Positions 1 to 25,126 of a DNA stretch of 64,000 nucleotides are shown here, in pieces (within the stretch, counting starts at the first letter, position 1; every line of letters starts with the position of its first letter). This DNA is from an uncultured Patescibacteria group bacterium. Its GTDB lineage: Bacteria > Patescibacteriota > Microgenomatia > UBA1400 > PJMF01. The notes under the pieces are model-generated. The model saw only the letters and a program-made list of their open reading frames with translations, searched no databases and was not told the DNA's origin. The DNA is taken from contig CAJQIG010000004.1 of the NCBI GenBank assembly GCA_905478415.1, positions 203,523 to 267,522 of the forward strand. Direction: 5' to 3'. The translations under genes and the position numbers were made by a program.

Positions 1-267
1 ATTGGGAACTCTGACTTTGAGAATTCCATCAACAGCCAACACTCTAGAAATTTCTACCACTACTTTGACAAAGTCATCGTAAATAAAATGTTCGAGAATA
101 TCTTGTGCAATAACTTCAGAAACACTGGCATTTTTGTAAGGAAGTGGCTCCGATACATCATGGAGCACATCTGGTTTGACTGCAGCCACTGCATCAATAT
201 TGACATACCCAGGCCGGTGATCCAGGCCACAGCCCAAGTTGAGTTTTTGTAGTTTCATTTTTTTCAT
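1..267 (-). CDS. Class I SAM-dependent methyltransferase; 5' part only, the 3' end runs off the window start
   Basis: Reverse-strand translation from the ATG at 267-265 reads MKKMKLQKLNLGCGLDHRPGYVNIDAV... LNLGCG is the SAM-binding motif I. The frame is open to position 1. The start is tightly coupled to the stop of the upstream glycosyltransferase. Confidence 0.6.
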   Translation of the reverse strand, partial: MKKMKLQKLNLGCGLDHRPGYVNIDAVAAVKPDVLHDVSEPLPYKNASVSEVIAQDILEHFIYDDFVKVVVEISRVLAVDGILKVRVPN

Positions 268-268
268 C

Positions 269-1321: not shown

Positions 1322-1354
1322 GCTGCAACCTTTTGTCAGTTTCTTGTCAGATAT

Positions 1355-3205
1355 ATGTCGTTAAATACGACTATGACTTCATTGTACTACAGGGCCAGCA
1401 CATCCCTGAAAGAAAAATTATTTCTTTTACTCTTACGAATAGTATTGTTATTACAGTGCCTCATACTTATCTTGTGGTTAGCAAAACCTGCACAGGCTCA
1501 AACCTATGTGTTTGAAGATGACTTCAGTGCCGGATTCAGCAAGTGGCAGCCAACAAGGGATAGTGGACAGTACTGGGCAATTCATAATGAGACACTTTTT
1601 GGCACCATTAACAGTGGCTTCACTCTTTCAGAACTTGTCCCTCATGATGATTTTTGGAACCCAGATTGGCACAACATTATTTACGAACTTGACTATACTG
1701 CCCTAACTGGTGCCGATAAAAATATTTCATTCCATTTCGAAAATGTTGCCAACTGGTATGAGATTCATTTTAATAGTTCGGGAACGGAAGTGCTGCGCCT
1801 CAAAGATGGGACTGTTCCTTGGAAAGCCCACCGACCCACAACCCTTCAAAACAATACACCCTACCATTTCAAACTCATTCTCAATGAGGGTACTATCAGT
1901 TTCTATATCGACTCAATTCTTATCTTTGAAGAAACTGATCCCACTTTCGATAATAATTATGGAAAAATTGGACTCAAGGCAACTGCTGGCAGTGTAACGC
2001 CCACTCAAATCACGATTGATAACGTCACTGTCTCTCTAATTGAAGAAACTGATCCTCGCTTAGGAGTCAAACGCATCTCCCAACTAGATCCTCAGTGGTC
2101 CTCACTCGAATATGATACGGGCACAACTTGGGCCCCAGATGATCCCAGCATTAGCGCTTGGGGTTGTGCGCTCTCGTCTATGGTCATGATTCTTGATTTC
2201 CATGGCATCACCAAATTCCCAAGTGGAGAACTCATTACTCCAGCTACTCTTAATGCATGGCTCCTCTCACAACCCGATGGATACATAGGAGATGGATTAC
2301 TCAATTGGCTGGCAGTTACGCGATTATCCCAGCAAATCAATCAAGTTTTTGAAACACCAAAACTCGAGTTTAGTATTATTCGTGACAATCTACTTACAAA
2401 AGCAACTTCAGAACTAGTCGAGTTCCTTCGACCAGTGATTATTAACATTCCGGGACACTTTCTAGTAGCCGAAGGCATCACTCAGGTAGAAAATCCAGAT
2501 TTCTATATTCAAGATCCTGCTTTTAGTTACACGCTCCTCAGCGAGCACGAAAAAGAGCCTCTTTCCCTTCGAACGTTTACTCCCAGTTTTACTGACTTAA
2601 GCTATTTTCTTATACACTCACCGGCAACAATCGTCCCCACGCTTGCCCTACAGAAAGAAGATGAACCTCTACAGCTCGACCTACAGACAGAAGCATCAAC
2701 TCTCACAGCTATTACCACTACTGAAGCTGGGACTGCCACCTTTTCCACTAGTTCTTCACCAGCTCAAACCTTGTTGTACCTTCAAAAACCAGATTCTGGC
2801 ACCTACATACTTTCTTTTTCCGGTCCTATCGGAAGCACATACTCTCTAGAACTTTTTCTCTATACTGCAGACGGTACTGCTCAAATTGAAACACTGACTG
2901 GCATCTTTGGACCAAGGTCAGAACAGTATCAACTCACATTTTTAAAAGCAGCCGGCCCGCAACTCCTCAAACAACTCTTCAATTCTGATGACCTCTCTTC
3001 TGACCTCAGCTATTTTCTCGAAAATAAATCTATCACCTCTCACTTTATCTGGTATGAGCTCACCCGGCTGCTCTCACTCTTCGAAACATTTCCAAAACAG
3101 ACTCAAGAACTTAAAAATCATTTCCTGACACTTCTTGCAGAGCATGCTACCGATTTTGAATCAGATACTCTTACCTATTTACAGGCCAAAATTAAGCTTT
3201 TATAG
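1355..3205 (+). CDS. Secreted two-domain protein: DUF1080/LamG-like N-domain plus a papain-like C39-like peptidase domain
   Basis: The ORF is open from 1286, but the first 23 codons overlap the GT gene. The Met at 1355/1373 is followed by a hydrophobic signal peptide ending AQA|QT. The N-domain reads YVFEDDFS..FSKWQP..WAIHNETL (concanavalin-like). The mid region reads WGCALSSMVMILDFHG, which resembles the Cys box of Peptidase_C39_2/BtrH. Confidence 0.45.
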   Translation: MSLNTTMTSLYYRASTSLKEKLFLLLLRIVLLLQCLILILWLAKPAQAQTYVFEDDFSAGFSKWQPTRDSGQYWAIHNETLFGTINSGFTLSELVPHDDFWNPDWHNIIYELDYTALTGADKNISFHFENVANWYEIHFNSSGTEVLRLKDGTVPWKAHRPTTLQNNTPYHFKLILNEGTISFYIDSILIFEETDPTFDNNYGKIGLKATAGSVTPTQITIDNVTVSLIEETDPRLGVKRISQLDPQWSSLEYDTGTTWAPDDPSISAWGCALSSMVMILDFHGITKFPSGELITPATLNAWLLSQPDGYIGDGLLNWLAVTRLSQQINQVFETPKLEFSIIRDNLLTKATSELVEFLRPVIINIPGHFLVAEGITQVENPDFYIQDPAFSYTLLSEHEKEPLSLRTFTPSFTDLSYFLIHSPATIVPTLALQKEDEPLQLDLQTEASTLTAITTTEAGTATFSTSSSPAQTLLYLQKPDSGTYILSFSGPIGSTYSLELFLYTADGTAQIETLTGIFGPRSEQYQLTFLKAAGPQLLKQLFNSDDLSSDLSYFLENKSITSHFIWYELTRLLSLFETFPKQTQELKNHFLTLLAEHATDFESDTLTYLQAKIKLL

Positions 3206-3219
3206 GGTATACTATTCAG

Positions 3220-4290
3220 GTGAAAAAAACTGGCAAAACATTCTGGCATACGTTTGAAAAACCTATCATAGGACTCTCTCCTATGGATGGCGTGACTGAC
3301 CAGCCGTATCGCTTCATTCAAAAAAAGTATGGCCAACCGGATCTTCTCTACACAGAGTTCACTAATGTCGAAGGACTCTGCCACGGAGCTACACAACTCC
3401 TCAAAGATTTTATCTATGACGAATCACAGCGACATATCATCGCCCAAATTTATGGAAAAACTCCCAAATACTTTCGTCAGGTTGCCACTATTGTCTGTGA
3501 ACTTGGATTTGATGGTGTCGATATTAATATGGGCTGTCCTGCCAAAACAGTTGCAAGTTCTGGAGCTGGAGCTGCACTCATAGAAAACCCAGAGCTTGCT
3601 AAAGAAATCATTGTTGCCACGCAAGCAGGGGTCACTGATTTTTTAAATGGAAAAAGAGCTAAGGACTGTGAAGATATTACTCCTCAAATGGCCGCCCTCG
3701 TTTCTCAGCGAGCACAATCTGTTCCAAAAGAGGTTGCCGAAAGAACCGCTATTCCCGTTTCTATCAAAACCAGAGTTGGCTATCATCAGCCAGTCACCAC
3801 AGAGTGGATCTCATTTCTCCTAGAGTTTGAACCTGCAGCTATTGCCCTCCACGGCCGTACCCTTAAACAACATTACACCGGCCTTGCCAGTTGGGAAGAA
3901 ATTGCAGTTGCTGCAGAACTAGCTAAAAAAACCAATACTATTCTTCTTGGTAATGGAGATATCCCGTCACTCTCAGATGCCAAGGAAAAAATTGCTACCT
4001 ACAATGTAGATGGGGTCCTCATTGGCCGTGGCAGCTTTGGAAATCCGTACATCTTTAAAAGTGAACCAGAATCCTCTGATCCTTCACTGACTCAAATTGC
4101 TCTCGAGCACAGTCTCCTCTTCGAGGAGACCTATGGTAAGGACGAACGCTATAATTTTCTACCCATGAGAAAACACCTAGGTTGGTACGTAAAAGGTTTT
4201 AGAGATGCCAAGGAAATTCGTATTGCCCTTTGTCAAAGTAACTCAGCCCAAGAGGTAAAAAATATCTTGATAGAGTATAATTTGATCTAA
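3220..4290 (+). CDS. dus: tRNA-dihydrouridine synthase
   Basis: TIM-barrel Dus signatures: MDGVTDQPYR, DINMGCPAKTVASSGAGAAL, and a GNGDI..GVLIGRG C-terminal region. Confidence 0.8.
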   Translation: MKKTGKTFWHTFEKPIIGLSPMDGVTDQPYRFIQKKYGQPDLLYTEFTNVEGLCHGATQLLKDFIYDESQRHIIAQIYGKTPKYFRQVATIVCELGFDGVDINMGCPAKTVASSGAGAALIENPELAKEIIVATQAGVTDFLNGKRAKDCEDITPQMAALVSQRAQSVPKEVAERTAIPVSIKTRVGYHQPVTTEWISFLLEFEPAAIALHGRTLKQHYTGLASWEEIAVAAELAKKTNTILLGNGDIPSLSDAKEKIATYNVDGVLIGRGSFGNPYIFKSEPESSDPSLTQIALEHSLLFEETYGKDERYNFLPMRKHLGWYVKGFRDAKEIRIALCQSNSAQEVKNILIEYNLI

Positions 4291-4294
4291 CCTC

Positions 4295-4368
4295 GGTCGT
4301 ATAGCTCAGTTGGTTAGAGCGCGCCGTTCACATCGGCGAGGTCTCTGGTTCGAGTCCAGATACGACCA
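4295..4368 (+). tRNA. tRNA-Val (anticodon CAC)
   Basis: Cloverleaf folded by hand. Acceptor GGTCGTA/TACGACC (7 bp), D-arm GCTC-AGTTGGTTA-GAGC, anticodon stem CGCCG/CGGCG with loop TTCACAT, T-arm TCTGG-TTCGAGT-CCAGA, discriminator A. CCA is not encoded. Confidence 0.85.
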
Positions 4369-4371
4369 CGT

Positions 4372-4965
4372 ATGAAAGCAATCTACCTAGTCCGCCACTG
4401 TGACTACTCAAATCCCCGCAATATTCTTGTCGGCAGACTTCCTGTTGAGTTATCGCCAACTGGTTTAAAACATGCCGAACGACTCGCCAATTATTTTAGT
4501 GATAAAAAAATTGAAACTATTTATTCTAGTGCAGTCAAACGCTGTCAACAAACGAGTGAAATTATTAGTAACAAAACTATTCCTATCAGGAATGACCAAC
4601 GGCTGCTGGAAACCTTTTCTGCCTATCAAGGGTACTGGGGAGGATTTAACAAAACAACTCAAGAGTTAGACTGGACTAAGTTCTTTGACCACCGAGAAGT
4701 ACTAGGAGGGGAAAGTGCACACGATATTCAAGCTCGAGTTGTCTCCTTCTTCACAGAAATCCTAACTCAGCCTGCAGAAACCATTCTGATCTGTTCCCAT
4801 GGTGACCCCTTATATCTGCTCTACCTTCATCTGATTGGAAAAAAGGATGTTTCAGATGTTGCTATTTATGGAGAATTACCTGACTATCAACCAAAAGGTT
4901 CAATCAGAAAAATTTCTTGCAAAAAAAATAACACTTTCGAGATCTCCCCAATTGTTGAACTGTAA
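4372..4965 (+). CDS. Histidine phosphatase family protein (phosphoglycerate mutase/SixA-like)
   Basis: N-terminal LVRHCD catalytic RHG-type motif. 197 aa is typical of the family. Confidence 0.6.
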   Translation: MKAIYLVRHCDYSNPRNILVGRLPVELSPTGLKHAERLANYFSDKKIETIYSSAVKRCQQTSEIISNKTIPIRNDQRLLETFSAYQGYWGGFNKTTQELDWTKFFDHREVLGGESAHDIQARVVSFFTEILTQPAETILICSHGDPLYLLYLHLIGKKDVSDVAIYGELPDYQPKGSIRKISCKKNNTFEISPIVEL

Positions 4966-4979
4966 ATGCTATACTTTTT

Positions 4980-6647
4980 TTGATGTCAGGCATGATCACT
5001 TCTCTGAAAAAATATATCTTGTTCTTGTTGGGCATCGGTATTCTCGTCTACGTACCATCATTCACTAATCAACTCTTTTGGGATGATGAACAGTTTATCT
5101 ATAACAACCAGTACGTTCAAACCTTTGATATCCCAAAAATTTTTAGCACCAACACTACTGCAGGAGCTGGAGAAGTAAGTAACTATTATCGACCTCTCAC
5201 AACTCTCTCATTTGCATTCGATTATCAATTTTGGGGAGTAAACCCAATTGGTTATCACTTAACCAATACGCTCTTACATACTTTTGCCGGTGTAGTACTG
5301 TTTCTTTTCTTATTGTCTTTAGGGATGGCGAAAAAACCAGCGGTGACCATTGCTAGTATCTTCTTACTCCATCCCCTTCAGACTGAAGCAGTTGTCTATG
5401 CAAATTCTCGAGGTGATTCATACTATACTTTGTTACTACTCTTGGGACTGCTCTCATTCTCACATCTAGTACAAAAAAAATACCTTACGGCAACATTTTA
5501 TAACTTACGTTTTACTTTTTCTAAAACTTATTTGAGAGCGCTCACCCTCGTTTTCTTTTGTACCAGCATACTAGCTAAGGAAATTGCGGTTGGGAGCGTT
5601 TTGCTTTACCTACTCACCTTTCTGTTTTTCTTGGTACAGAAAAAAACTACTCAAATTAAAACTGGCAGTGTCACTTTGTTGAGCCTGATCGTAAGTTTTT
5701 TTGGATACTTTGCACTCAGATCTTCTCTCCTACAGTTTCAAGAAAATACAAATTTCTTTGCGGGAAGCCCCTATGGTGATTCTGTTCTTGTTCGAATTGC
5801 CACATTTTCAAAGGTCGCACTCATCTACCTGAGATTGATAGTGGCACCATTCAACCTTCATATGGAACGCACTACAGAAATCGTGACTACTCTTGCTTCA
5901 CCATTTACTGCTGCACTTGTTTTTCTAATTGGCATCACTCTGTTTCTCGGCTCAATAGAGTGGAAACAAAAGAATAGTACTTGGATCTGGTTTGGCATTG
6001 TCTGGTTTTTTAGTATGCTTGGCCCTGTTTCTGGAATCATTCCCATAAACGACATCATGTACGAACACTGGCTCTATGTCCCCATGATAGGTTTCTTTAT
6101 TTCCTTGTATGGCTGTTTATCACTGCTTTTCTGGAAGCTAAAAAACCCTTGGCCTCAAGTGACTAATTATCTGGTTGGTACTCTCTTGATCTTCTACAGT
6201 GTGTTAACTATTCGACAAAACTACCTGTGGGCTACTCCAATTCGCTTCTACTCATACATATTGACGTTCCAAGAAACAGCCCGGATCAGAAACAATTTAG
6301 CAATGGCTCATGCTGAAGAAGGAAATTTGATAGAAGCTATCGATAACTATCAAAAATCAATTGCCCTCTCTGATATCTATCCACAAACACATTACAACCT
6401 CGCCAGAAGTTACATTGCCTTGGGTGAAAATGAAAAATCTCTCACAGAACTTGAGACAGCAATCTCTATGCAACCAAAGTTTTTCATTGCGTACCCATTG
6501 ATTATCGAAGTGTTACTAGAACAAAAACAGTTTGATGCAGCATCTAAATATCTGGGCATCTTTAAGGAAGAATATCCAAACCACTCGCTCACTGAGCAAC
6601 TAACGTTACTCCTGGAAAAAACCAAAACATTAGACACTACAGAATAA
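4980..6647 (+). CDS. Polytopic GT-C glycosyltransferase, PMT/TMTC-like, with C-terminal TPR repeats
   Basis: Multiple TM helices. The loop motif YYRPLTTLSFAFDYQFWGVNPIGYHLTNTLLH matches the conserved PMT/TMTC loop. The C-terminal about 150 aa are TPR-like (AMAHAEEGNLIEAIDNYQKSIAL..YNLARSYIALGE). Confidence 0.5.
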   Translation: MMSGMITSLKKYILFLLGIGILVYVPSFTNQLFWDDEQFIYNNQYVQTFDIPKIFSTNTTAGAGEVSNYYRPLTTLSFAFDYQFWGVNPIGYHLTNTLLHTFAGVVLFLFLLSLGMAKKPAVTIASIFLLHPLQTEAVVYANSRGDSYYTLLLLLGLLSFSHLVQKKYLTATFYNLRFTFSKTYLRALTLVFFCTSILAKEIAVGSVLLYLLTFLFFLVQKKTTQIKTGSVTLLSLIVSFFGYFALRSSLLQFQENTNFFAGSPYGDSVLVRIATFSKVALIYLRLIVAPFNLHMERTTEIVTTLASPFTAALVFLIGITLFLGSIEWKQKNSTWIWFGIVWFFSMLGPVSGIIPINDIMYEHWLYVPMIGFFISLYGCLSLLFWKLKNPWPQVTNYLVGTLLIFYSVLTIRQNYLWATPIRFYSYILTFQETARIRNNLAMAHAEEGNLIEAIDNYQKSIALSDIYPQTHYNLARSYIALGENEKSLTELETAISMQPKFFIAYPLIIEVLLEQKQFDAASKYLGIFKEEYPNHSLTEQLTLLLEKTKTLDTTE

Positions 6648-6651
6648 GTCA

Positions 6652-7338
6652 GTGAGTCCCGCTACAGTACTTGATACTGTGTCTTTTTTTCATCCATTAC
6701 GAACTATCGTCAGTGTTCTGCTAACACTCTTTTTTCCTCATTGTTGCTGTCTCTGCAAAAAGCCCTTCACTCCACTCTGTGAATCCTGTGCAGATAAACT
6801 AGATTTTTGCACCCAGTTTGAAACGAAAATTTTTTACCCCAACAACAAACTACAAGCTGTATGCAGGTTTGATCGAAATTCACAAAAAATAATTCATACA
6901 TTTAAGTATCAAAACATTAAAGACCTTGCTTTCTCCATTGCTAAGCTGATAGTGCTTCATGTTCCACTTCCCCCAACAGACTTCGTTACCTCTGTTCCTC
7001 CCGATCCTCTCCGGAAAAAACAGAGAGGCTTTGATCATACTCAGCTGATTGCTCAAACCATAGCCCAGTACCTAGATACACCATATATTGAGTGTTTTAC
7101 TAAAAAAGAACAAACGCAAGCACAAGCAAAAACCAGATCAAAGGCAGAACGAGAGCAAAATATCAAAAATGCTTTTTCGATTACCACTTCGTTTATAACT
7201 ACAGATATTCTAAATGGCAGTTCTATTCTGCTAGTAGACGATGTCTGCACAACTGGTACAACACTACAATACTGCAATGCATTGCTAGAAGAGTGTGGTT
7301 TCACCACCTCAAATGTAGTTTTCGCCGTCAAAATATAA
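6652..7338 (+). CDS. comF: ComF-family protein: zinc ribbon plus phosphoribosyltransferase domain
   Basis: N-terminal CxxC...CxxC ribbon, and C-terminal PRTase motif LLVDDVCTTGTTL. Confidence 0.65.
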   Translation: MSPATVLDTVSFFHPLRTIVSVLLTLFFPHCCCLCKKPFTPLCESCADKLDFCTQFETKIFYPNNKLQAVCRFDRNSQKIIHTFKYQNIKDLAFSIAKLIVLHVPLPPTDFVTSVPPDPLRKKQRGFDHTQLIAQTIAQYLDTPYIECFTKKEQTQAQAKTRSKAEREQNIKNAFSITTSFITTDILNGSSILLVDDVCTTGTTLQYCNALLEECGFTTSNVVFAVKI

Positions 7339-7412
7339 TTGCATTTTCCATGTATTCATGCGCCAAACTTGAACTATAATAACAGGACTAGAAAATCAAT
7401 TGCTAGGCCGCT

Positions 7413-8855
7413 ATGAAAACATCAATAAAAATTGTTACACCAGGAAATTTTGCACCACACAAACACTGGTATCCCAAAGCACTTAATGCTCAAATCCACC
7501 CGCTCGTTTCCTACTTTATGAATATGGATAATGAACGAATTATTAGACGCTTTGCATATCTTAACCCATCTGTAAATGCAGATTATTTGAGTACACTATT
7601 GCAATATAAACCAAAGTACTTCAAGTGGGCTGGAGCTGACCTAATGCACACCACCACCACTAAGGGTAAAAAACAAATTGTGGTGATCGAAACAAACTCT
7701 TGTCCTTCTGGCCAAAAATCATTTCCGCTGCTTGATGAAAATAAGGAACAGGGTGGCTACAAGGAACTCATTGAAAAAACATTCCTACCGGTCTGGAAAA
7801 AAAGTCCCATTAAAACAGGTATCACCTGTGTCTTCTATGACAAAAATGAAATGGAAAATAGTGGCTATGCCGCCACAATTGCTGATAGCATTAAAAAACA
7901 AGTCTACTTAGTCGAGTATCATGAAAATGAATATGGCCAAACTGTTCGCTACAACTCTAAAACTAAAACACTTGAACTGCTGCTAAAAGACACATGGACC
8001 CCCATTAGAGCTATCTTCCGCTACGTGACCCAAAAACCTTGGAATCGCCTGCCATTGTTCTCCAAAACTAAAATCTTCAATCCTGTGATAGCTTGCTTAG
8101 CTGGCGGTCGAAACAAGCTCATGGCTTCAAAAGCTTATGACTTCTTAAATGCAGAAATTGCTGAAGCCGGACTTAAAATTCAAACACCAACAACCATTTG
8201 GGATGTTAATAAGAATGAAATTCCCCTCTGGATAGAGAAATTTGGTTACAAAGGAGTCATAAAAATTCCGTACAGCAACGCTGGCCAAGGTGTGTTCACC
8301 ATTGTAAACAAGCAAGAACTGGACGCCTTTATGGAACTTGAAATTCCGTATCAAAAATTTATTATCCAGAGGTTAATTGGGCATTATGCCTGGAGTTCTC
8401 AACATGAAAATGAACTCTTTTTTCAAGTTGGAACCATGCCAAGCAAACGCGGCAACAGCTATGTGTTTGACCTTAGAATGCTCGTCCACCATACCCCAGA
8501 AGGCATGAGGCCTCTTGGTTTATACAGTCGAAAAGCTGGCCTCCCCCTTACCGCAGATATTTCTGGAAAAGAATCAAAAGATGTCCTCATGACCAATCTT
8601 TCTGTCAAAAACGATGATGGTAGCTGGGATAGCGATGTCAGTAGACTGCTCCTCATGGATCAGCGTGACTTCAACAAAATTGGCATGAGCCTCGATGACT
8701 TAATTGAAGGCTATGTCCAGTCGGTACTCTGTGTCATTGCCATTGATAAAATGGCTCAACGATTAGTAAGTACTAAAAAGACATTTAAGAAAAAATTATT
8801 TACCTCACTTAATGATGATGAAACATTACTCAAGGAACTCTTCTCCCATGAGTAA
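7413..8855 (+). CDS. ATP-grasp-like ligase (YheC/YheD/TTL-like), function unknown
   Basis: 480 aa. Contains IKIPYSNAGQGVFTIV and FDLRMLVHH, typical of ATP-grasp B/C subdomains. The stop overlaps the next gene's start (ATGAGTAA). Confidence 0.4.
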   Translation: MKTSIKIVTPGNFAPHKHWYPKALNAQIHPLVSYFMNMDNERIIRRFAYLNPSVNADYLSTLLQYKPKYFKWAGADLMHTTTTKGKKQIVVIETNSCPSGQKSFPLLDENKEQGGYKELIEKTFLPVWKKSPIKTGITCVFYDKNEMENSGYAATIADSIKKQVYLVEYHENEYGQTVRYNSKTKTLELLLKDTWTPIRAIFRYVTQKPWNRLPLFSKTKIFNPVIACLAGGRNKLMASKAYDFLNAEIAEAGLKIQTPTTIWDVNKNEIPLWIEKFGYKGVIKIPYSNAGQGVFTIVNKQELDAFMELEIPYQKFIIQRLIGHYAWSSQHENELFFQVGTMPSKRGNSYVFDLRMLVHHTPEGMRPLGLYSRKAGLPLTADISGKESKDVLMTNLSVKNDDGSWDSDVSRLLLMDQRDFNKIGMSLDDLIEGYVQSVLCVIAIDKMAQRLVSTKKTFKKKLFTSLNDDETLLKELFSHE

Positions 8856-9738
8856 AACACCTTTTGGATGGCTTCTGGTTACAAAACATTCAAACGAGTA
8901 TAAAAAAAGACGTTTGATCGAAGAAGCTGAAAGAGCAGCTATCGATTTGCGAGTTGTCACTCCAGACCAATTTTTACTCCAAAGCACTTCTTCAAAAAAT
9001 GTGATCAGAGACATTCAGACAGGCACTCCAATCGAGGAACTGCCTACATTCGTAATTTCTTTAGTAGTAGTTGAGGAAAAAGATCCACAGGCATTTGTTC
9101 TGATGGAGCACCTTGCTGCTCTAGACTTATTACTCATCAATAACCCAACATCTGTCAGACATGCAAATGACAAAATGGCTACCTATCGAACTGCTGCTAA
9201 GATGCAAATCAGAATACCCACCACTTTTCTGCACATTCCAGGAACACTACTGACTCTGCAGGAGCACATTCAGTATCCCTGTGTCATAAAACCAAATAAA
9301 GGCCTGAAGGGAACAGGAGTAGAACTAGTACAAAATGTAGAAGATCTGACAACACACCTCAATACAGTCTCAGAACCAACACTAGTCCAAGAAGCCATTG
9401 CCGAAAGTAGCGGAAAAGATGTTCGTGTTCTTATGTTGGGAAATAAACCATTAGGATCCATGCTCCGAGAAAGTAACACTTCATTTACTTCAAATATTGC
9501 TACCGGGGGCTCTGCGAAAATGACAACTATTAATCCAAGCTACGTAGACATTGCCACTGCGCTCTTAAAAAAAATGACTATTACCTTCGGCTCAGTGGAC
9601 TTTCTCTATGGGAAAGATGAAATGGTGCTCTGTGAAGTAAATGCTAACCCGGGATTGAAAATGTTTGAAGCCGTCAGCAATCGTAATATCGCAAAAGAAA
9701 TTCTTCTCTACTGCACTAAACAAAGTCATACAAGCTGA
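8848..9738 (+). CDS. RimK-like ATP-grasp ligase (alpha-L-glutamate ligase family)
   Basis: Contains VIKPNKGLKGTGVELV, DVRVLMLGNKPLGSMLRE and MVLCEVNANPG, which are RimK/GshB-type ATP-grasp motifs. The start at 8848 is coupled to the upstream ATP-grasp gene. Confidence 0.6.
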   Translation: MSKTPFGWLLVTKHSNEYKKRRLIEEAERAAIDLRVVTPDQFLLQSTSSKNVIRDIQTGTPIEELPTFVISLVVVEEKDPQAFVLMEHLAALDLLLINNPTSVRHANDKMATYRTAAKMQIRIPTTFLHIPGTLLTLQEHIQYPCVIKPNKGLKGTGVELVQNVEDLTTHLNTVSEPTLVQEAIAESSGKDVRVLMLGNKPLGSMLRESNTSFTSNIATGGSAKMTTINPSYVDIATALLKKMTITFGSVDFLYGKDEMVLCEVNANPGLKMFEAVSNRNIAKEILLYCTKQSHTS

Positions 9739-9783
9739 AAAAAACCTCTTTTTCTGCTATAATAACCTCATAATCTAAAAAGT

Positions 9784-10202
9784 GGGGATGTACTGCTTTG
9801 ACGGAGTATGTTCATTAATATCTGCAGATCTTCTTTGACTAAGAAAGAAGTAAAACAGAGTCAAAACATAATTGCAAATAAAACTGCAAAAGGCATTTTA
9901 GATACTACCACTAATGCATTCGCATCAGTGTTCGGTACTAACTCTGCTCCTGCTTTCATCGCTGCATAAGCTTTGTAACAGGCGTGTATTCTTTTCATCT
10001 CATTGGCGTGAGGGAGTATGCGTAAACCCAGTCAATGTGACAAATAGTTTTCGTTCGTTGAAACTATCATAAGCAAATAGACGAAGATTGTGTCATGAAG
10101 GCTTGTTTGTTTTCCCTCTGACGCAACAACAAGGACAAACTACATCTGTAGATGATATTGGTGCTACTATTTCGGACGCGAGATCATTCCTCGCCATCTC
10201 CA
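9784..10202 (+). ncRNA. ssrA: tmRNA (ssrA), one-piece
   Basis: The 5' end reads GGGGATGTACTGCTTTGACGGAG (compare E. coli GGGGCUGAUUCUGGAUUCGACGGG). The 3' end reads ATTTCGGACGCGAGATCATTCCTCGCCATCTCCACA (compare E. coli AUUUCGGACGCGGGUUCAACUCCCGCCAGCUCCACCA). The 7-bp acceptor GGGGATG/CATCTCC has a G3:U70 alanine identity pair. The T-arm is GCGAG-ATCATTC-CTCGC. An internal open frame ends ...SAPAFIAA-TAA at 9967-9969, typical of a tag peptide. An intrinsic terminator follows. Confidence 0.85.
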
Positions 10203-10212
10203 CAACAATCAA

Positions 10213-10250
10213 AAGAAGAGTCTCGGGCAAGACTCTTCTTTATTTTTTTA
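10213..10250 (+). terminator. Rho-independent terminator of ssrA
   Basis: 11-bp perfect stem AAGAAGAGTCT / AGACTCTTCTT with loop CGGGCA, followed by TATTTTTTTA. Confidence 0.75.
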
Positions 10251-10367
10251 ACTGGTATCAAAAATTATAGCTTTAGTAGTTCCATCAAAATATGCGATAT
10301 GATCACTTTGATTCTAATTGATTTATTTATATGCCTTTAAGAAAAGAAACATGCTCATGATTCAGGC

Positions 10368-10396
10368 TTTACACGTTCACAAATTTAATAAATAAT
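10368..10396 (+). promoter_or_regulatory. Putative sigma70-like promoter for the surface-protein locus
   Basis: TTTACA (10368-10373), 17-nt spacer, AATAAT (10391-10396), about 11 nt before the ATG at 10408. Prediction from sequence only. Confidence 0.3.
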
Positions 10397-10407
10397 GGAT
10401 TTAAGAT

Positions 10408-11436
10408 ATGTCTAATAGAAAACACTTACTACTAGCTGCTGTTTTGTTTGTGGCTTTTTTTGCCCTCTTTCCTAAAAATGCTCAAGCTGCACAACTTACC
10501 GAGGCCTATGTCAGACTTGATCGACTCAAAGCCTCAACCACAACTGGTGGAACGGTATGCGCAAAATTAACAACAACAGGTTCTACAGATACAACTATAA
10601 AAGTAAGCTTTCCTTCAGGTTTTACTGTCGACTCTACAGCTAGCAACTGGACTGTAACCACAACCAATTTGCCGGCAGGTGCCTCAGCCATGCCTGGTAT
10701 TAGCACCGCCTCTTTAGTTGCAAGTCAAGATGTTACTTTTCCAATAACTGACATCTCTTCTGGTGCAACGCTCTACTGTTTCAATTTTACCGGAACCAGT
10801 ACCTTAACAAATCCCACAGCCGGAAATGATAAAACTGGCACCATCACCGTACAGGCAAGTGGACCAACGGAGGTTGATTCTGGTAACTTTGCTCTTTCAA
10901 TTATTTCTGACGACCAGGTAGTTATTACGGCTACCGTTCCAGCTACCTTTAGTGTGGCCCTTGGCACAAACACCCAAGCACTTGGAACGCTGAGTACTGG
11001 TTCTGTTTCGTCTGGATCTGGAGTCTCTGTTACCATTGGCACGAATGCAGGTAATGGTTGGATTGGTTGGGTACTCAGTGCAAATCAAGCACTTGATTCA
11101 GCTACTACAGGTGACACTATCGCTACAACAGGAACTGTTGATGATACTCCAAGTAGTCTCTCTGCTGGTACAGAAGGCTATGTACTTGATGCCGACTTAA
11201 CTACTGATTCTGCAACTGGGGGATCTGGAACTGTAACCATTGATGCCGAGTACTTAGGTGCCGACACTTCTTCGGGAGGTGCGTTGAGTGCAACTTTCAC
11301 TGAGTTTGCTACTGCAAATGGACCAACTGATGGAGATGTCATTACCTTGATCCCTAGAGCTGCCATTTCGGGTCTGACACAAGCTGCCACAGATTATACC
11401 GATACCCTTACCATTGTTGCTGCTGGACACTTCTAG
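10408..11436 (+). CDS. Secreted surface protein, paralog family A (WxL-like?)
   Basis: Sec signal peptide (..FPKNAQA|AQ). The conserved N-domain (YVRLDRLKAS, NWTVTTTNLPAGASAMPG, VTFP, TNPTAG) is shared with 21288..24146. A mid IGWVL motif, the C-terminal motif DYTDTLTIVAAGHF, and a Thr/Gly/Ser-rich composition are shared with 14171..15223. Confidence 0.55.
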   Translation: MSNRKHLLLAAVLFVAFFALFPKNAQAAQLTEAYVRLDRLKASTTTGGTVCAKLTTTGSTDTTIKVSFPSGFTVDSTASNWTVTTTNLPAGASAMPGISTASLVASQDVTFPITDISSGATLYCFNFTGTSTLTNPTAGNDKTGTITVQASGPTEVDSGNFALSIISDDQVVITATVPATFSVALGTNTQALGTLSTGSVSSGSGVSVTIGTNAGNGWIGWVLSANQALDSATTGDTIATTGTVDDTPSSLSAGTEGYVLDADLTTDSATGGSGTVTIDAEYLGADTSSGGALSATFTEFATANGPTDGDVITLIPRAAISGLTQAATDYTDTLTIVAAGHF

Positions 11437-11494
11437 TCTCTTTCTTCTGTTTGTCGTTTACTCTTTTGGCATGGTACGATATATTGAGTAATAG

Positions 11495-12604
11495 ATGATC
11501 AAACGTATGTCTTTCAACTCCAAAAAACTTCTTTTATCTCTTCCTGTCCTGATTATCCTGATCTTTTCAGCCACAACTGTCCGAGCTCAGGAAACTTCAA
11601 CAGCTAGTGCTGAGACAGAAGCAGCTGCAACACCTCCACCAGCCGCCATTCAACCAATAGACTTAACCGTTTCGCCCATCACTCTCAACTTAGCTACTGA
11701 TCCTGGTAAGGAGGTAACTTCGGCCATTAAAGTGTTTAACAATAGCACTGAAAAAGAGTATTTAGAAATCAAGTTAGCTAAGTTCACCGCTGACAGGACT
11801 GGTTCGCGTCCTCAGATTAGAGACTTCGAAGCAAGTGACTCCTATCAAGACTGGCTGCAATTTGAACGGACAACATTCGAAGTGAACCCCGGCGAGTGGG
11901 AAACTATTAATCTTACATTTGCTCCACCTGCAGAGTCGGCTCTGGCTTACTACTATGCAATTATCGTCAAAAGACAAGTTGATACCACTGACGATGCCGC
12001 CACAACCATTGTCACTGGAGCACCTGCCATTTTAGTGCTCGCAAATATTTATTCGCCTAATGCTATTCAAGAGTTACAATTAGTAGATTTTTCTATGAAA
12101 AAAAAATTCTATGAATACTTGCCAGCCGAGTTCGAAATAGATATAAAAAATACAGGTAATATTCATCTCAGCCCACTTGGAAATATATTTATTGACAAAG
12201 GAGATGATAAAGATATTGCCTTACTCTCTATCAATAAAGAAAACGGATTAGTACTTCCTGACTCACAACGAACCTACACAGCAAAATGGACGGAAGGATT
12301 TCCTGTGTACGAACCAGTCATCGAAAATGGTATTGAAAAAAAAGATGAGAAGGGAGAGACAGTCTACAAACTTAACTGGGACCTCTCTAAAATTAATCAG
12401 TTCCGTTTTGGAAAATACACTGCTAACCTTTTATTAGTCTATGATAACGGTGTGCGAGACATTCCCATAGAATCAGTACTGACATTTTGGGTTTTTCCGT
12501 GGAAGATACTATTGGTAGCTCTGCTCCTCGTAGTCTTACTTTCACTGGGAGTGATGTATCCGCTACTTGCGCTCTATGGTAAAGTTAAGAAAAAAGAAAC
12601 ATAA
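11495..12604 (+). CDS. Surface-anchored protein with signal peptide and C-terminal TM anchor (DUF916/DUF3324-like)
   Basis: Signal peptide (..TTVRA|QE). The Ig-like region IDLTVSPITLNLATDPGKEVTSAIKVFNNSTEKEYLEI resembles the conserved core of DUF916 cell-surface proteins. The C-terminal TM is WKILLVALLLVVLLSLGV followed by KVKKKET. Confidence 0.45.
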   Translation: MIKRMSFNSKKLLLSLPVLIILIFSATTVRAQETSTASAETEAAATPPPAAIQPIDLTVSPITLNLATDPGKEVTSAIKVFNNSTEKEYLEIKLAKFTADRTGSRPQIRDFEASDSYQDWLQFERTTFEVNPGEWETINLTFAPPAESALAYYYAIIVKRQVDTTDDAATTIVTGAPAILVLANIYSPNAIQELQLVDFSMKKKFYEYLPAEFEIDIKNTGNIHLSPLGNIFIDKGDDKDIALLSINKENGLVLPDSQRTYTAKWTEGFPVYEPVIENGIEKKDEKGETVYKLNWDLSKINQFRFGKYTANLLLVYDNGVRDIPIESVLTFWVFPWKILLVALLLVVLLSLGVMYPLLALYGKVKKKET

Positions 12605-12610
12605 TTCTAC

Positions 12611-13546
12611 ATGGTATATCGCTTCTGGAATTTTTTTTTAGTAAGTAGCTTACTGTTATTTTTAACAGCAACTGCTCCAATGGCTTTTGCACAAGAAAAA
12701 AACAACTTTTCGCTGACTATTCAACCAGCATACCAAGAAGTTGAGATACCTGAAGATAAGAATAGTGTCGAAACAACGATAACTCTGAAAAATCCTTCTG
12801 ATACAGCCCAACAAATGGAACTATTCGCCTTTGATTTTACCCAAAGTGACCATTTTGGCTCAATTGCTTTGCTCGATGGATTCACCGGCCAGTATGCTCA
12901 TACTCTAGCTTCCTTTTTATCCTTTGAAAAAGACAGTCTCATCATTGCTGCTCAATCTGAAGAAGAAGTCGTCATTAAAATTGAAAATAGAGCTACGCTT
13001 TCTCCTGGAGGTCACTATGCTGCCATAGTAGTTCGAGCAATTGAAGAACAAGGTGCCTCGCAGCAAAAAATACTTCCAGCTGTAACATCGCTTTTGCTGG
13101 TCAGAAAAAAAAGTGGTGAACGTATTAATCTATCCCTAAAAGAACTTAGTTGGCAACCAAAAGCACTGGTAACTCACTTTCCAGAAAAAATTGACTTGAC
13201 TTTCGAGAATGGGGGAAATGTCCATGTTGTTCCAAGGGGCACCGCAGCTATTACAGACATTTTTGGCCGCGTCGTGTTTCAGGGAACAGTTAACGAATCA
13301 AGTTTGTACCTCTTACCAGGAACAATGAGAACAATTTCTACAAACTTACAACAGTCAAGAACTTTTTTTCCACTGATGTTTTATTCTTTAGAAATACATG
13401 GGAGATCAAATGTTGGTGAAGCTACTTTTTCTTCCGAAACTAGTTTTCTGTACGTTGACTGGAAATTTGTTGTGCTTTTGTTGATCATTGTGGGAGCCAT
13501 TATTTTCAGAACGGTACAAAAGAAGAAAAGAAATGAAAAAAAATAA
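12611..13546 (+). CDS. Second signal-peptide plus C-terminal-anchor surface protein (DUF916/DUF3324-like paralog)
   Basis: Signal peptide (..MAFA|QE). Contains SLTIQPAYQEVEIPEDKNSVETTITLKNPSDTAQQMEL, the same pattern as the previous gene. The C-terminal TM is FVVLLLIIVGAIIF followed by a KKKRNEKK tail. Confidence 0.45.
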   Translation: MVYRFWNFFLVSSLLLFLTATAPMAFAQEKNNFSLTIQPAYQEVEIPEDKNSVETTITLKNPSDTAQQMELFAFDFTQSDHFGSIALLDGFTGQYAHTLASFLSFEKDSLIIAAQSEEEVVIKIENRATLSPGGHYAAIVVRAIEEQGASQQKILPAVTSLLLVRKKSGERINLSLKELSWQPKALVTHFPEKIDLTFENGGNVHVVPRGTAAITDIFGRVVFQGTVNESSLYLLPGTMRTISTNLQQSRTFFPLMFYSLEIHGRSNVGEATFSSETSFLYVDWKFVVLLLIIVGAIIFRTVQKKKRNEKK

Positions 13547-14147
13547 CGTTCCCATCACCAGTATTCTGTTCATCAGTGCTGCTATTAGCATCAGCATTGG
13601 TATTTTTTGGTATCTAAGTGGAAACTCTGAGCAAAGAGTCACGGGCGGTCTTTCTGATAGAACCCGGGAGTTCTTAACGTCTCAAAAAGCCAATACTGAT
13701 TCTCTTTGGCCAGACTACACTTTCGAAGAAGGTACTGAACAAAAACAATACCAATCAGTTGAAACTAATTGTTTTACTCTCGAAATGCCCATTCCTGTCA
13801 GGAATCTGAAAACAAGTATCGAACAAGAAAGCTGTTTAGTAAAAGCTACAATTGATACTCCACATGCATTTTTAACTATTAGTTCAGAGCCTGCTCCCAG
13901 CATCCACTCTCTATCAGATCTCTCTGCTGTCAAACTACGCACAACTCAGCCAGATGTGTACACCCAAGAAAAAAGAGAAGAACTTGATAGCCCCAATAGT
14001 ATTGTTTTTTCTACTACCACAGAGGTCGTGTATTTTTACTTAGAAAATGAAACCATTACTACGGTTGCTCTGTATGACCTAGCTACCATTAATTCAGATA
14101 CGTACCAACTCTTAACCAAAGTAGTGAAGTCAGTTGGTATCCAGTAA
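13533..14147 (+). CDS. Membrane-anchored hypothetical protein (N-terminal TM)
   Basis: ATG at 13533 gives MKKNNVPITSILFISAAISISIGIFWYL (TM) followed by a soluble domain. It overlaps the previous gene's end by 14 nt. The track ORF starts at 13488, but that lies inside the upstream gene. Confidence 0.4.
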   Translation: MKKNNVPITSILFISAAISISIGIFWYLSGNSEQRVTGGLSDRTREFLTSQKANTDSLWPDYTFEEGTEQKQYQSVETNCFTLEMPIPVRNLKTSIEQESCLVKATIDTPHAFLTISSEPAPSIHSLSDLSAVKLRTTQPDVYTQEKREELDSPNSIVFSTTTEVVYFYLENETITTVALYDLATINSDTYQLLTKVVKSVGIQ

Positions 14148-14170
14148 AGAAATCTATATACTAAGAACGA

Positions 14171-15223
14171 ATGAAAAAACCAGTTATACTCATGAGCCTG
14201 ATGTTACTAGCCTTTCCGGCCAGCACTAACTATGCTCTAAAAAGTTTTGATTTTAATGCCGGTGGTGATAATTCCTTGAGTTCTTCAAGCTATGCCATGG
14301 AAGGTGCAGTGGGTGAACTAGGGAGCGATCCACTTTCTTCACTCAACTACACTACGCTTCCCGGACTCCTGTATACACAAATGGTGAACACACCATCAGC
14401 CCCAACTGTTACCAATGCTGGAGACTTCACAAATAAACTGTTAGTCACTATTGCTACTGAAGGCAACCCCTCTGACACTACCTATGCCATTGCTGTTTCT
14501 GATGATAACTTTGTCACCACAGAGTATCTGCAATCAGACAATACGGTGGGTGCTACACTCGGAGCTGAAGACTGGCAAACCTATGCCGATTGGGGCGGAG
14601 GTAGTGGAGAGTTTGCAGTTGGGTTAGTTCCTAACACAACCTATTACTTCAAAGTTAAAGCTGCCCAAGGAGAATTTACTGAAGGCCCCTGGGGTCCGGT
14701 AGCATCAGTAGCAACTTCAGCACTGAGTATTTCATTTGATATTGATGTATCTGCAACGGACCAAGAGACAGCAGCTCCATACGCTGTTGCACTAGGAGAT
14801 CTGCAATCGGGAACCATTGTCACCAGTACCGAAAAAATATGGGTTGACCTAGCTACAAATGCACCAGGAGGAGGCTTTGTGTATGTCTTTGGTTCCAATG
14901 GAGGTTTGTTGAGTCAAAAAACAAGTCATACTATTTCAGCCGTGTCAGGAAATTTAAGTAGCTTAGATGAAGGTTTTGGAATCCAATACAACAGCCTTTC
15001 AGAAAGTAGTGGCGGACCAATGGTGGTTTCATCTCCATATGACGGAGCGGGAGAAGTTGTCGGTACTATCACCACAAACCCACAAGAGATTTTCAATACC
15101 TCTGCCACTGCAATTGCTGGCGGAAGAGCTTCATTTGTGACCAAAGCTAAAATTGATGACTTAACTCCAGCTGCAGCTGACTACACTGACACCATTACTA
15201 TTATTTCGACTGCTAGTTTCTAA
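14171..15223 (+). CDS. Secreted surface protein, paralog family A (WxL-like?)
   Basis: Signal peptide MKKPVILMSLMLLAFPAS. The C-terminus AAADYTDTITIISTASF and the mid KIWVDLATN motif are shared with 10408..11436. Thr/Gly-rich. Confidence 0.5.
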   Translation: MKKPVILMSLMLLAFPASTNYALKSFDFNAGGDNSLSSSSYAMEGAVGELGSDPLSSLNYTTLPGLLYTQMVNTPSAPTVTNAGDFTNKLLVTIATEGNPSDTTYAIAVSDDNFVTTEYLQSDNTVGATLGAEDWQTYADWGGGSGEFAVGLVPNTTYYFKVKAAQGEFTEGPWGPVASVATSALSISFDIDVSATDQETAAPYAVALGDLQSGTIVTSTEKIWVDLATNAPGGGFVYVFGSNGGLLSQKTSHTISAVSGNLSSLDEGFGIQYNSLSESSGGPMVVSSPYDGAGEVVGTITTNPQEIFNTSATAIAGGRASFVTKAKIDDLTPAAADYTDTITIISTASF

Positions 15224-15927
15224 TGAACAAGCACCATTCTGGACCCTTTTTTTTTAGATCTTTGCACTTTCTTTTGATTGTAGGTCTTTTTTTTATCTTG
15301 GGACCTCTCTTTCAAGTTTCTGCTTCTTCAGTAGGACCAAAAACTTCACCAGTTTTAGCCGGAACTGTCAAAGTTACTGCTGAAGTAGCTGTTTCACCTC
15401 AACAAAAGTTTTTGATAGCAAAAAACTCATCTCTCATACTACAAAATCAGGGAATACGTGTTGGAAAACCCACTAAACTACACATTACCCTCAGGGGGTA
15501 CCAAAACCAACTCAAACCTTTTCAGGATTTTTCTATAAAAATTGTGGATGCTGATTTTGGTGTCCTTCAAAGCTACTTAGCAAAGACTGACCACACAGGT
15601 ACTGCCACACTTACTTTTATTCCAAATGCTCTCAGTCAGAGAGGTTCTTTTATACAAATTGATGTATTTAATGATAGATATACAACCACACAAGCTATTA
15701 CTTTCAGTACTCAGTATATACAGAACCTACCAAAACTACAAAATAGTTCAGAAAAATCCTTAGTTTTAAATCCTGATAATCGGGTTATATTCGTATTCTC
15801 TACCAGAGGTAAAACTGCTATGCTTACAAGAGGTAGTTATGTATTTTTTACAACCAAAAACACCAGCTCTAAAGGTAATCCGTATCTTTTTGCTGCTCGT
15901 GATGGCCCTTGGACTGTTACTACTTAA
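15223..15927 (+). CDS. Secreted hypothetical protein
   Basis: The start overlaps the upstream stop (TAATG). Hydrophobic signal region LHFLLIVGLFFILGPLFQVSASS. Confidence 0.4.
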   Translation: MNKHHSGPFFFRSLHFLLIVGLFFILGPLFQVSASSVGPKTSPVLAGTVKVTAEVAVSPQQKFLIAKNSSLILQNQGIRVGKPTKLHITLRGYQNQLKPFQDFSIKIVDADFGVLQSYLAKTDHTGTATLTFIPNALSQRGSFIQIDVFNDRYTTTQAITFSTQYIQNLPKLQNSSEKSLVLNPDNRVIFVFSTRGKTAMLTRGSYVFFTTKNTSSKGNPYLFAARDGPWTVTT

Positions 15928-17926
15928 GAACCAGGCAAAGGCGGCCACTGGTATTTACAAAACTATAAACTTCCAAGGAAAAGTCGTAAATAGTGATGGC
16001 ACCAACGTTGCGGATGGAGATTATGATTTTGTCTTTTCTCTCTACACCGTTGACACCGCCGGCTCAGCAGTCTGGACCGAATCACGTACTACCGTTAACC
16101 AAGTCACCGTCACAGACGGTGTTTTTCGTGTAGCTTTGGGTGAGGTAACTACCTTACCCGGATCAATTGACTTTAATACTGATAATATTTACTTGGGTAT
16201 CAACTTCAATAGTGATGGAGAAATGACTCCTCGAGTTCGCTTCACTGCTGTCCCCTATGCTTTTAATGCTCTCAAGGTTGCAGGACTTACTGTCACTGAT
16301 ACCACCGGAACATTAACTGTTCCAGATGCCAGCACCATTGCCTTTTCAGGTGCCTTCGACACCACCTTTACGACTACCAACACAACTACTGTCACCCTTC
16401 CAACTACAGGAACGCTGGCAACTTTGGCAGGAACAGAAACGTTTACCAATAAAACTATTGGTTCAACCGGACTCACCTTTTCTGGCGCAACGACTGACAT
16501 TACCACAGGAACAAATGAACATTTTGTTATCTCTCCGAATGGCACTGGGAATGTTGGAATTGGATCAACAACACCAACCCAATTCTTTGAGGTCCAAAAA
16601 GATACAAATGGATATGCAGCAATGTTAATTGATAACGAAACAAATGACACACTCGCTGCATCAGGATACTTCTTTGAAAACTCTACTAGAGGTGGTGGTT
16701 TTGGACTTTATTCTGATAACTTTACAGGGGGTGGAGGCTTAAGTCACTTGGCGGGTAGAATGGCTACGGCTGGATACAATGGGTTAGAACCACTTGGTAT
16801 AGATCTTATTGCAAACCATGCTAGTGGAGATATCCGATTGTTTACAGGCGGTATTGCAACTTCGAATGAGCGTATGCGAATTGACTCTGCTGGAAATGTG
16901 GGAATTGGTACCACCACAACGAGCAGCTACAAACTTGATGTAACTGGCACTATCCGAGCCACTGGCAGCGTCCTCAGCTCTGATATTGATGCAGATACAG
17001 CCGGGGCTCTTACGATCGGTAACACCACGGCCACTGCAGTCTCTATCTGTAACTCTGCCGCCTGCGACACAATTTCCATTGGCAATAATGCTGACGCAGA
17101 TACCATTACTATTGGTGACTCTCCAGATGGACTAACAATCAGTAGTTCTGGCTTCAACTTAACTTCTGGAGGAGCAATTTCTGGTATCTCTACTTTTGCA
17201 AGTAGCGGTGACTGGACTTGGTCAGCTACCACTCCAACCTTAACACTCAACTCGAGCGAGACCCTCACAATAACAGATGGCACTGATAGTTTTGTGGTTA
17301 ACACAGCCAGTTCATTATTCTCACTTTCTGACGGCAGCAACAGCTTTACCTTTGATGCTGACACTGGGCCTAACTACACTGGAACTGCACGACCAACAAA
17401 AAAGATTGTCATTTCGCCAGAATATGCTGGTGGGACTTTAACAACCTTCTATGGAGCTGGTACCGATGCTTCAATAACTGGAGTCATGACTGCCGATGCA
17501 GAAACTACCGCCACTGACAGCCTCCGCACCTACTATGAATGGAGTAGTTCTCAGGGCTCACTAAACTACTACACCGTCGTAGTCAGGATAACACTACCTG
17601 AAGATTTCAGTGCATGGGCCCCTTCTAACGCCCTACAAGTTGACTTCACCACTGAATCAACAAACTCAGCAAATAACTTACTTAGCGCCTATGTATATCT
17701 AAGTAGTGACTCAACAACCGCAGTAGCCTCAGACGTAAGTAATGCAGCTGCTGGAGCCGAAACTTGGGAACAAATCACTGTTGATGACAGTGTTCTAGAT
17801 GACGCTGCTGCTCCAGAGTGGGATGCTGCTGGAGAAACGGCGCTCATTTACCTCAGAATGGGATCAACTGGCAACAATTTTGCGAGAGTTGGCGACATCA
17901 CCTTAAATTATGTTGCCCGGTTCTAG
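15839..17926 (+). CDS. Large secreted Thr/Gly-rich fibrous protein (adhesin/fibre-like)
   Basis: 695 aa. The N-terminal signal-like region is KVIRIFLLLVMALGLLLLKNQAKA|ATG. About 25% Thr plus Gly, with repeated TTxT/GT motifs. The 5' end overlaps the upstream gene; an alternative start is 15902. Confidence 0.5.
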   Translation: MYFLQPKTPALKVIRIFLLLVMALGLLLLKNQAKAATGIYKTINFQGKVVNSDGTNVADGDYDFVFSLYTVDTAGSAVWTESRTTVNQVTVTDGVFRVALGEVTTLPGSIDFNTDNIYLGINFNSDGEMTPRVRFTAVPYAFNALKVAGLTVTDTTGTLTVPDASTIAFSGAFDTTFTTTNTTTVTLPTTGTLATLAGTETFTNKTIGSTGLTFSGATTDITTGTNEHFVISPNGTGNVGIGSTTPTQFFEVQKDTNGYAAMLIDNETNDTLAASGYFFENSTRGGGFGLYSDNFTGGGGLSHLAGRMATAGYNGLEPLGIDLIANHASGDIRLFTGGIATSNERMRIDSAGNVGIGTTTTSSYKLDVTGTIRATGSVLSSDIDADTAGALTIGNTTATAVSICNSAACDTISIGNNADADTITIGDSPDGLTISSSGFNLTSGGAISGISTFASSGDWTWSATTPTLTLNSSETLTITDGTDSFVVNTASSLFSLSDGSNSFTFDADTGPNYTGTARPTKKIVISPEYAGGTLTTFYGAGTDASITGVMTADAETTATDSLRTYYEWSSSQGSLNYYTVVVRITLPEDFSAWAPSNALQVDFTTESTNSANNLLSAYVYLSSDSTTAVASDVSNAAAGAETWEQITVDDSVLDDAAAPEWDAAGETALIYLRMGSTGNNFARVGDITLNYVARF

Positions 17927-17939
17927 CACAAAAGATACT

Positions 17940-21254: not shown

Positions 21255-21287
21255 GGATAGTCGTTCATTCCTCTTTGGGAAATCATA

Positions 21288-25017: not shown

Positions 25018-25126
25018 GATACTCTATCACCGTTCAAAAGGCAAGAAAAATAAAGGTGGCGCAGACCTTTGTCCTACGCCACCTTCACTAACATACCAAG
25101 CCAGACGGCCTGGTCTTACATGCCTA

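Follow-up and report, generated by a model that had tools for sequence, protein, structure and literature searches.

A standard one-piece tmRNA gene (ssrA) with a long tag and a variant T-loop in a Patescibacteria (CPR) chromosome

The closest described systems are the one-piece tmRNAs of the Rfam family RF00023, such as SsrA (10Sa RNA) of E. coli, in which the elements follow each other in the order acceptor, helix 2, PK1, reading frame, helix 5, PK2-PK4, T arm and acceptor. The tag of E. coli is specified by 10 encoded codons, and Mycoplasma tags are of about 27 amino acids and are read by Lon. One-piece tmRNAs are typically of ~350 nt (PMC1168896), within published ranges of 250-425 nt (whole RNA) and 48-126 nt (mRNA-like domain); the tmRNA of Chlamydophila psittaci has 425 nt (Burks et al. 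2005, PMC1168896). In addition, A84-U85-A86 of E. coli tmRNA are cited as the nucleotides that set the frame, and the tmRNA T-loop is described as highly conserved (PMC1168896).

We have analysed a stretch of 64,000 nucleotides from an uncultured Patescibacteria group bacterium, here called the window, and have found such a gene at 9784..10202 on the plus strand. With a probability of about 0.96, we consider it to be the chromosomal ssrA of a Pacebacteria-like Patescibacteria (CPR) bacterium, encoding a standard one-piece tmRNA. Its identity as a tmRNA is supported by two independent RNA-gene finders, by covariation in syntenic relatives and by conservation of the tag frame, which all agree with the proposal of an initial annotation that a tmRNA with its own terminator lies in a gap free of ORFs. 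This gap is 669 bp long, as the neighbouring ORFs stop at 9738 and begin at 10408.

The RNA shares with E. coli SsrA and the one-piece family the order of elements given above, the G3:U pair, the discriminator A, the GCA (Ala) resume codon, the A-U-A at positions -6 to -4, and a tag ending with hydrophobic residues followed by AA. On the other hand, it has 419 nt instead of about 350 nt, its tag has 31 residues instead of 10, its T-loop is AUCAUUC and not UUCGAUU, the analogue of the D-loop is one nucleotide shorter than in the Rfam model, with UG in place of the GG of the consensus, the CCA is not encoded, and smpB is not adjacent. In length and tag size it falls within the range documented by the long tmRNAs and tags of C. 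psittaci and Mycoplasma, though the sequence relationship to these is limited to the family core. Overall, this is a member of a known family and an ordinary housekeeping gene whose mild oddities are the 31-residue tag and the variant T-loop, and none of the peculiarities of T-loop, D-loop, CCA or tag length breaks a defining feature of the tmRNA family.

Both gene finders that had been suggested as a check were positive. ARAGORN placed a tmRNA at 9784..10203 (+) and read its tag as ANKTAKGILDTTTNAFASVFGTNSAPAFIAA, and the covariance model RF00023 matched 9784..10205 with 95.7 bits (E 4.8e-36) over model positions 1-374 without truncation, which is far above what chance would give. The gathering score of the family is 47 bits, and full-length tmRNAs commonly score higher than this one. 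The model of the permuted two-piece tmRNA, RF04321, gave no match in the window, and a permuted gene is ruled out by the collinear arrangement, with the 5' acceptor strand at 9784 and the 3' one at 10195. The only other RNA-family match of ARAGORN and Rfam in the window is a tRNA-Val at 4295..4369. The textbook ends with a G3:U70 pair described earlier are indeed present: the RNA starts from 9784 with GGGGATGTACTGCTTTGACGG and ends with ATTTCGGACGCGAG-ATCATTC-CTCGCCATCTCCA, of which the last base is 10202, and the two ends form a stem of 7 bp. The features of the locus are as follows.

9735..9763 (+), promoter-like site: CTGAAA, a 17-nt spacer and a TG-extended TATAAT, from a consensus scan (10/12 matches, with TG)
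9784..10202 (+), mature tmRNA (ssrA), 419 nt up to the discriminator A, from ARAGORN and Rfam RF00023
9784..9790 (+), 5' strand of the acceptor stem, GGGGAUG, pairing with 10195..10201 (CAUCUCC) over 7 bp, read from the sequence
9802..9829 (+), 5' strand of helix 2 (2a-2d), pairing with 10144..10174, in place of an anticodon arm
9830..9864 (+), pseudoknot PK1: S1 9830-9834/9846-9850; S2 9835-9840/9859-9864
9868..9873 (+), resume context AUAAUU, aligned to the Rfam consensus AUAAuUGCaA
9874..9969 (+), tag frame called by ARAGORN: resume codon GCA, 31 codons, stop UAA at 9967-9969
9949..9982 (+), helix 5: 9949-9952/9979-9982 and 9961-9963/9969-9971
9983..10037 (+), pseudoknot PK2: S1 9983-9995/10010-10022; S2 10001-10007/10031-10037
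10044..10085 (+), pseudoknot PK3: S1 10044-10051/10060-10067; S2 10054-10059/10080-10085
10087..10140 (+), pseudoknot PK4: S1 10087-10095/10119-10127 and 10099-10101/10115-10117; S2 10105-10110/10135-10140
10178..10194 (+), T arm: GCGAG, loop AUCAUUC, CUCGC; 5-bp stem and 7-nt loop
10212..10250 (+), intrinsic terminator: 12-bp hairpin (10212..10241) with the loop CGGGCA, then A and T7

Relatives were retrieved by searching with the RimK-like protein encoded upstream and then by examining the contigs of its homologues. Three distinct RimK-like homologues (46-50% protein identity) have a tmRNA directly downstream, as located with Rfam RF00023 (102-108 bits):

L039 2345..2754, tmRNA
L040 6006..6417, tmRNA, with identical copies in L041 1322..1733 and L042 2528..2939
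L045 1074..1501, tmRNA

Together with the tmRNA of the window these make four sequences, which are 76-81% identical. RimK-like homologues without an adjoining tmRNA were found in L043, L044, L047 and L048. In the window, the region 7413..9738 (+) contains a 480-aa ORF with a faint rimK-family match and then the RimK-like ATP-grasp ORF, and this pair is kept directly upstream of ssrA in L039, L040 and L042. ARAGORN reported no tmRNA in L039, L040, L041, L042 or L045. It is thus blind to three of the four clade members whereas Rfam/Infernal detects all of them, and annotation pipelines built on ARAGORN would miss the ssrA of most of this clade.

From the four sequences, we have derived a secondary structure of 108 pairs, consisting of the acceptor, helix 2a-d, PK1, the tag frame, helix 5, PK2-PK4 and the T arm. 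RNAalifold yielded the acceptor, the T arm, helix 2 and a single hairpin per pseudoknot, and the second stems of the pseudoknots were found by a search for conserved complementary segments. Standard pairing is seen in 98.8% of the cells (108 pairs in four sequences), a percentage that is inflated, as the structure comes from the same four sequences. The both-sided changes are not inflated in this way: they occur in 21 pairs, whereas sliding the 3' partners by 1-3 columns leaves 1-6 such pairs, and none of 500 shuffles reaches the observed values. Compensatory changes are present in helix 2, S1 of PK1, helix 5, both stems of PK2, S1 of PK3 and both stems of PK4. The acceptor stem is invariant in all four sequences, so that covariation is uninformative there either way.

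Helix 2 is paired in 100% of the cells over its 26 pairs, two of which are compensatory (alignment columns 28:400 and 36:391), and helix 5 shows one compensatory change. In PK1, a G:C to U:A change has occurred in S1, and S2 is paired in 95.8% of the cells. PK2 has four compensatory pairs in S1, and one pair of its S2 occurs as U:A, C:G and G:C. For PK3, five of the eight S1 pairs are compensatory and S2 is 100% paired. In PK4, four compensatory pairs lie in S1 and three in S2, the latter stem having two unpaired cells and an overlapping alternative. All of PK1-PK4 can be drawn as H-type pseudoknots. The initial annotation had named pseudoknots that do not fold and the lack of a tag-resume context as possible grounds against a tmRNA, and we find four pseudoknots and a resume context that aligns to the consensus.

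The A-U-A of the resume context is kept in 4/4 sequences, and we take it, at positions -6 to -4, to be the counterpart of the frame-setting A84-U85-A86 of E. coli tmRNA. The 53-codon open frame at 9808..9969 that had been reported to end with SAPAFIAA-UAA is present by translation (MFINICRSSLTKKEVKQSQNIIANKTAKGILDTTTNAFASVFGTNSAPAFIAA*, i.e., 53 codons and a stop). The tag had been thought to be drawn from this frame, and this is so, but it comprises the last 31 codons only, starting at the GCA at 9874. Its stop codon is located in the apical hairpin of helix 5. The tags of the three relatives are AKQTANILDTTTNTLRSAFGMPNYALAA (28 aa), ANKTAKGILDTTTNTLTSVFGNSYAPALAA (30 aa) and ANKSAKSILLDTRDAVASAANSLFGAEYAPAIAA (34 aa). 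All four tags, being 28-34 aa long, end with AA and share a conserved N-terminal block ANK-AK-IL-DT...FG. The four members are open in the GCA phase only, with stops in the other two frames, and all indels are multiples of three. This single open phase, together with length differences in multiples of three, indicates that the tag segment is translated.

The same frame accounts for the size of the RNA. The length of about 419 nt had been taken as a sign of extra pseudoknot insertions, but we have found exactly the four usual ones, and the 96-nt tag frame (with the stop), ~60 nt above that of E. coli, suffices to explain 419 nt against the typical ~350-360 nt. The size of this tmRNA is therefore high yet within the documented range.

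The alanine identity pair, with G3 opposite U, lies in the acceptor stem and is followed by the discriminator A at 10202, after which the genomic sequence reads CAA. The T-loops of the four members are AUCAUUC in the window and GUCACAC, AUCAUUC and GUCAUUA in the relatives. Thus positions 54/58 are A/U, G/C, A/U and G/U, where the Rfam consensus has the nearly universal U54/A58; the common pattern is RUCAYNN, i.e., a purine at 54 and a pyrimidine at 58. The tRNA-Val of the same window has a normal UUCGAGU T-loop.

We have further scanned 185,579 species genomes and a metagenome collection with the T-loop pattern GGACG-N4-ATCATTC-N4-CC-NN-CTCCA. Among the species genomes, the exact AUCAUUC loop occurs in one standard tmRNA (Saccharibacteria, L010) and in one permuted tmRNA. 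The metagenome scan gave a handful of tmRNAs from unrelated lineages, and the remaining matches are due to chance. The AUCAUUC T-loop is hence rare as an exact string, yet not restricted to the clade of the window. Apart from the identical L028, these pattern scans revealed no close relative, and the loci of Akkermansiaceae, Ktedonobacterales and Methylobacter that they retrieved contain no tmRNA.

The tmRNA of the Candidatus Saccharibacteria MAG L010 (CAYIJQ010000069.1), likewise a member of Patescibacteria, and that of the related metagenome copy L026 resemble the tmRNA of the window in the AUCAUUC T-loop and in length (414 nt for L010 and ~390 nt for L026). Their long tags, ANKVARAVLSPIQLGDLQFAYAKA and ANKVARAILSPIQMADLQFAYA, also start with ANK. 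On the other hand, they are barely alignable with it outside the tRNA-like domain, and the gene directly preceding ssrA is an SmpB-like ORF in L010 and the RimK-like gene in the window. The tags of these two Saccharibacteria-type tmRNAs, of 22-24 aa, are long as well, a hint that such tags may be widespread in Patescibacteria.

Several other elements came to light in these scans. In L020 (742..2428) and L031 (1362..7785), tmRNAs with an AUCAUUC T-loop and the tags VERQFALAA and AERQFALAA, respectively, lie amid closely packed tRNA genes (8 and 20), a layout that recalls large phages. The permuted model RF04321 matches, again with an AUCAUUC T-loop, at L007 876..1140 and L025 5682..5934, the former contig being the Prolixibacteraceae MAG OY781040.1, of Bacteroidota type. 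L017 contains, at 1845..2246, two adjoining matches, one of 151 nt to the tRNA model and one of 140 nt (49.1 bits) that covers the two ends of the tmRNA model. This is either a tmRNA-like element of unusually small size or a tRNA that is interrupted.

The long tags and the R54/Y58 T-loop are small data points on the drift of the tRNA-like domain and the tag in bacteria with reduced genomes; they open no new question and merit a line in a comparative survey. The long tag may contain signals for some protease that is not ClpXP. A more far-reaching reading, which we regard as rather improbable, would be that the clade has remodelled the tRNA-like elbow (purine 54/pyrimidine 58 and UG in the D-loop) together with its tags of 28-34 aa, that the SmpB/EF-Tu interface has co-adapted, and that the tag is recognised by some other protease or adaptor than ClpXP/SspB. 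If true, trans-translation would exist in CPR bacteria in a lineage-specific form. The window also encodes, at 31664..32725 (-), a 353-aa AAA+ protein with a Lon lid domain, in which the Lon protease domain was undetected and which is possibly relevant to the proteolysis of tagged proteins.

The promoter-like site and the strong terminator are plausible transcription signals, as judged from their sequences. The predicted -10 hexamer TATAAT ends at 9763, 20 nt 5' of the mature end, and the -35 hexamer is weak; a TATAAT- or TATACT-like hexamer stands at equal distance in L039 and L045. Downstream, the perfect 11-bp hairpin with U7 noticed in the initial annotation forms the core of a 12-pair hairpin, followed by A and T7. 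This hairpin folds with -15.8 kcal/mol (z = -6.3), and none of 200 shuffles is equally stable.

Every step of the mechanism is what we infer from membership of the tmRNA family. A promoter of sigma-70 type belonging to the gene itself would drive ssrA, and its own intrinsic terminator would stop transcription. Given the distance of 20 nt between the predicted -10 hexamer and the mature 5' end, a short leader should be removed by RNase P, which would trim the precursor at 9784, and nucleases would trim its 3' end. From the genomic CAA after the discriminator, it follows that the CCA should be supplied by the CCA-adding enzyme. AlaRS would then charge the tRNA-like domain with alanine by recognition of the G3:U pair and the discriminator A. 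When a ribosome has stalled on a broken mRNA, the tmRNA would enter its vacant A site together with SmpB and EF-Tu, the nascent chain would pass to the alanine, and the ribosome would resume at the GCA at 9874, translate the 31-residue tag and terminate at the UAA in the hairpin of helix 5. The ribosome would thereby be freed, and the hydrophobic ...AFIAA end (...A(F/L/I)(I/A)AA in the clade) would mark the tagged protein for proteolysis. Helix 2 and the four pseudoknots would surround the reading frame as the usual scaffold.

A working gene of this kind has to be distinguished from a decayed, non-functional or mobile-element-borne tmRNA copy, such as phage or island cargo or the remnant of an attachment site. 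tmRNA genes are known targets of integration and some phages carry tmRNAs. Moreover, the T-loop of the window is off the consensus, the genes at 10408..21254 are almost without family matches, and the phage-like tRNA arrays described above include tmRNAs with the same T-loop. However, the gene is complete over the whole model, and in four lineages at the same chromosomal position all helices have been kept by compensatory change and the tag frame has been kept too. We have searched the whole window for repeats of the 3' end with a 31-mer (<=3 mismatches) and a 17-mer (<=2 mismatches), and a single copy of each was observed. In addition, there is no integrase among the ORFs scanned, neither end matches IMG/VR viral contigs, and no step in G+C occurs at the site. 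An island or prophage integrated at the 3' end of the tmRNA is accordingly rejected, and we consider a decayed or mobile copy very unlikely as a whole.

The idea that the locus is a small protein gene, either the 53-codon ORF from ATG 9808 to UAA 9969 or a 45-aa ORF on the minus strand, with tRNA-like ends by coincidence, can appeal to the open frame and to a gene caller that placed the latter ORF opposite to the RNA in two assemblies, but it is hardly credible, as the ATG lies inside helix 2, the first 22 codons make up helix 2 and PK1 where the changes in the relatives are compensatory for pairing, conservation of the frame begins only at the GCA resume codon, and the full-length covariance-model match (E 4.8e-36) would be left unexplained.

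Returning to the ssrA gene, we have examined how it is represented in public data. Among public metagenomes, 21 contigs encode the 342-aa protein that follows downstream, and the largest of them has 658 kb (ENA ERZ23498645 scaffold_2). In all six copies that we retrieved, the 601-bp stretch that includes the tmRNA gene matches the window with 100% identity (seven assemblies altogether). Public gene calls for the matching contigs contain proteins only, and in two assemblies they include the 45-aa ORF on the minus strand inside the RNA, which is almost certainly a false protein call; it corresponds to 9861..9998 (-) of the window and to 2454..2591 of both L001 and L005. The value of the present result is mostly one of annotation, in that an uncultured Patescibacteria genome obtains its correct ssrA and the spurious ORF call is removed.

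As to the lineage, the nearest named homologues of the PNPase show 65-79% identity and are labelled Patescibacteria group, Candidatus Pacebacteria or Woesebacteria. A few NCBI labels among the PNPase homologues (Pseudomonadales, Pacearchaeota) look like those of mis-binned MAGs. A weak, sub-threshold match of one downstream ORF to a pilus protein of CPR type adds to this placement. The organism thus appears to be a Pacebacteria-like member of Patescibacteria (CPR), on the basis of the labels of neighbouring sequences and not of a phylogeny. The rest of the window is ordinary chromosome, with nusA-infB, rpsO-pnp, sufS/sufB/sufC/nifU, ftsK, RNase J, SOD and enzymes of the pentose-phosphate pathway. 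No smpB, the gene of the obligatory partner protein, was found in the 64-kb window, where the tblastn matches to two SmpB queries had E > 2 and the ORFs scanned contain no Pfam SmpB match; this counts against the reading as a working ssrA.

Nine ORFs on the same strand follow ssrA at 10408..21254 (+), almost without family matches. Sub-threshold matches point to the CPR-type pilus protein PamT (14171..15223), the N-terminal domain of a Bdellovibrio adhesive fibre (15839..17926) and MG2 (17910..21254), and these ORFs probably encode surface or pilus proteins. Farther downstream, the SufB gene at 44061..46619 (-), of 852 aa, is split by an intein that includes a homing-endonuclease domain of the LAGLIDADG type (Hint/Intein_splicing and LAGLIDADG_3), and a separate 172-aa SufBD-core ORF (43574..44092) comes after this intein-bearing SufB. 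The GC skew is negative in all 2-kb bins of 1..64000, and the genes are mostly on the plus strand from 1 to 21 kb and mostly on the minus strand from 21 to 64 kb.
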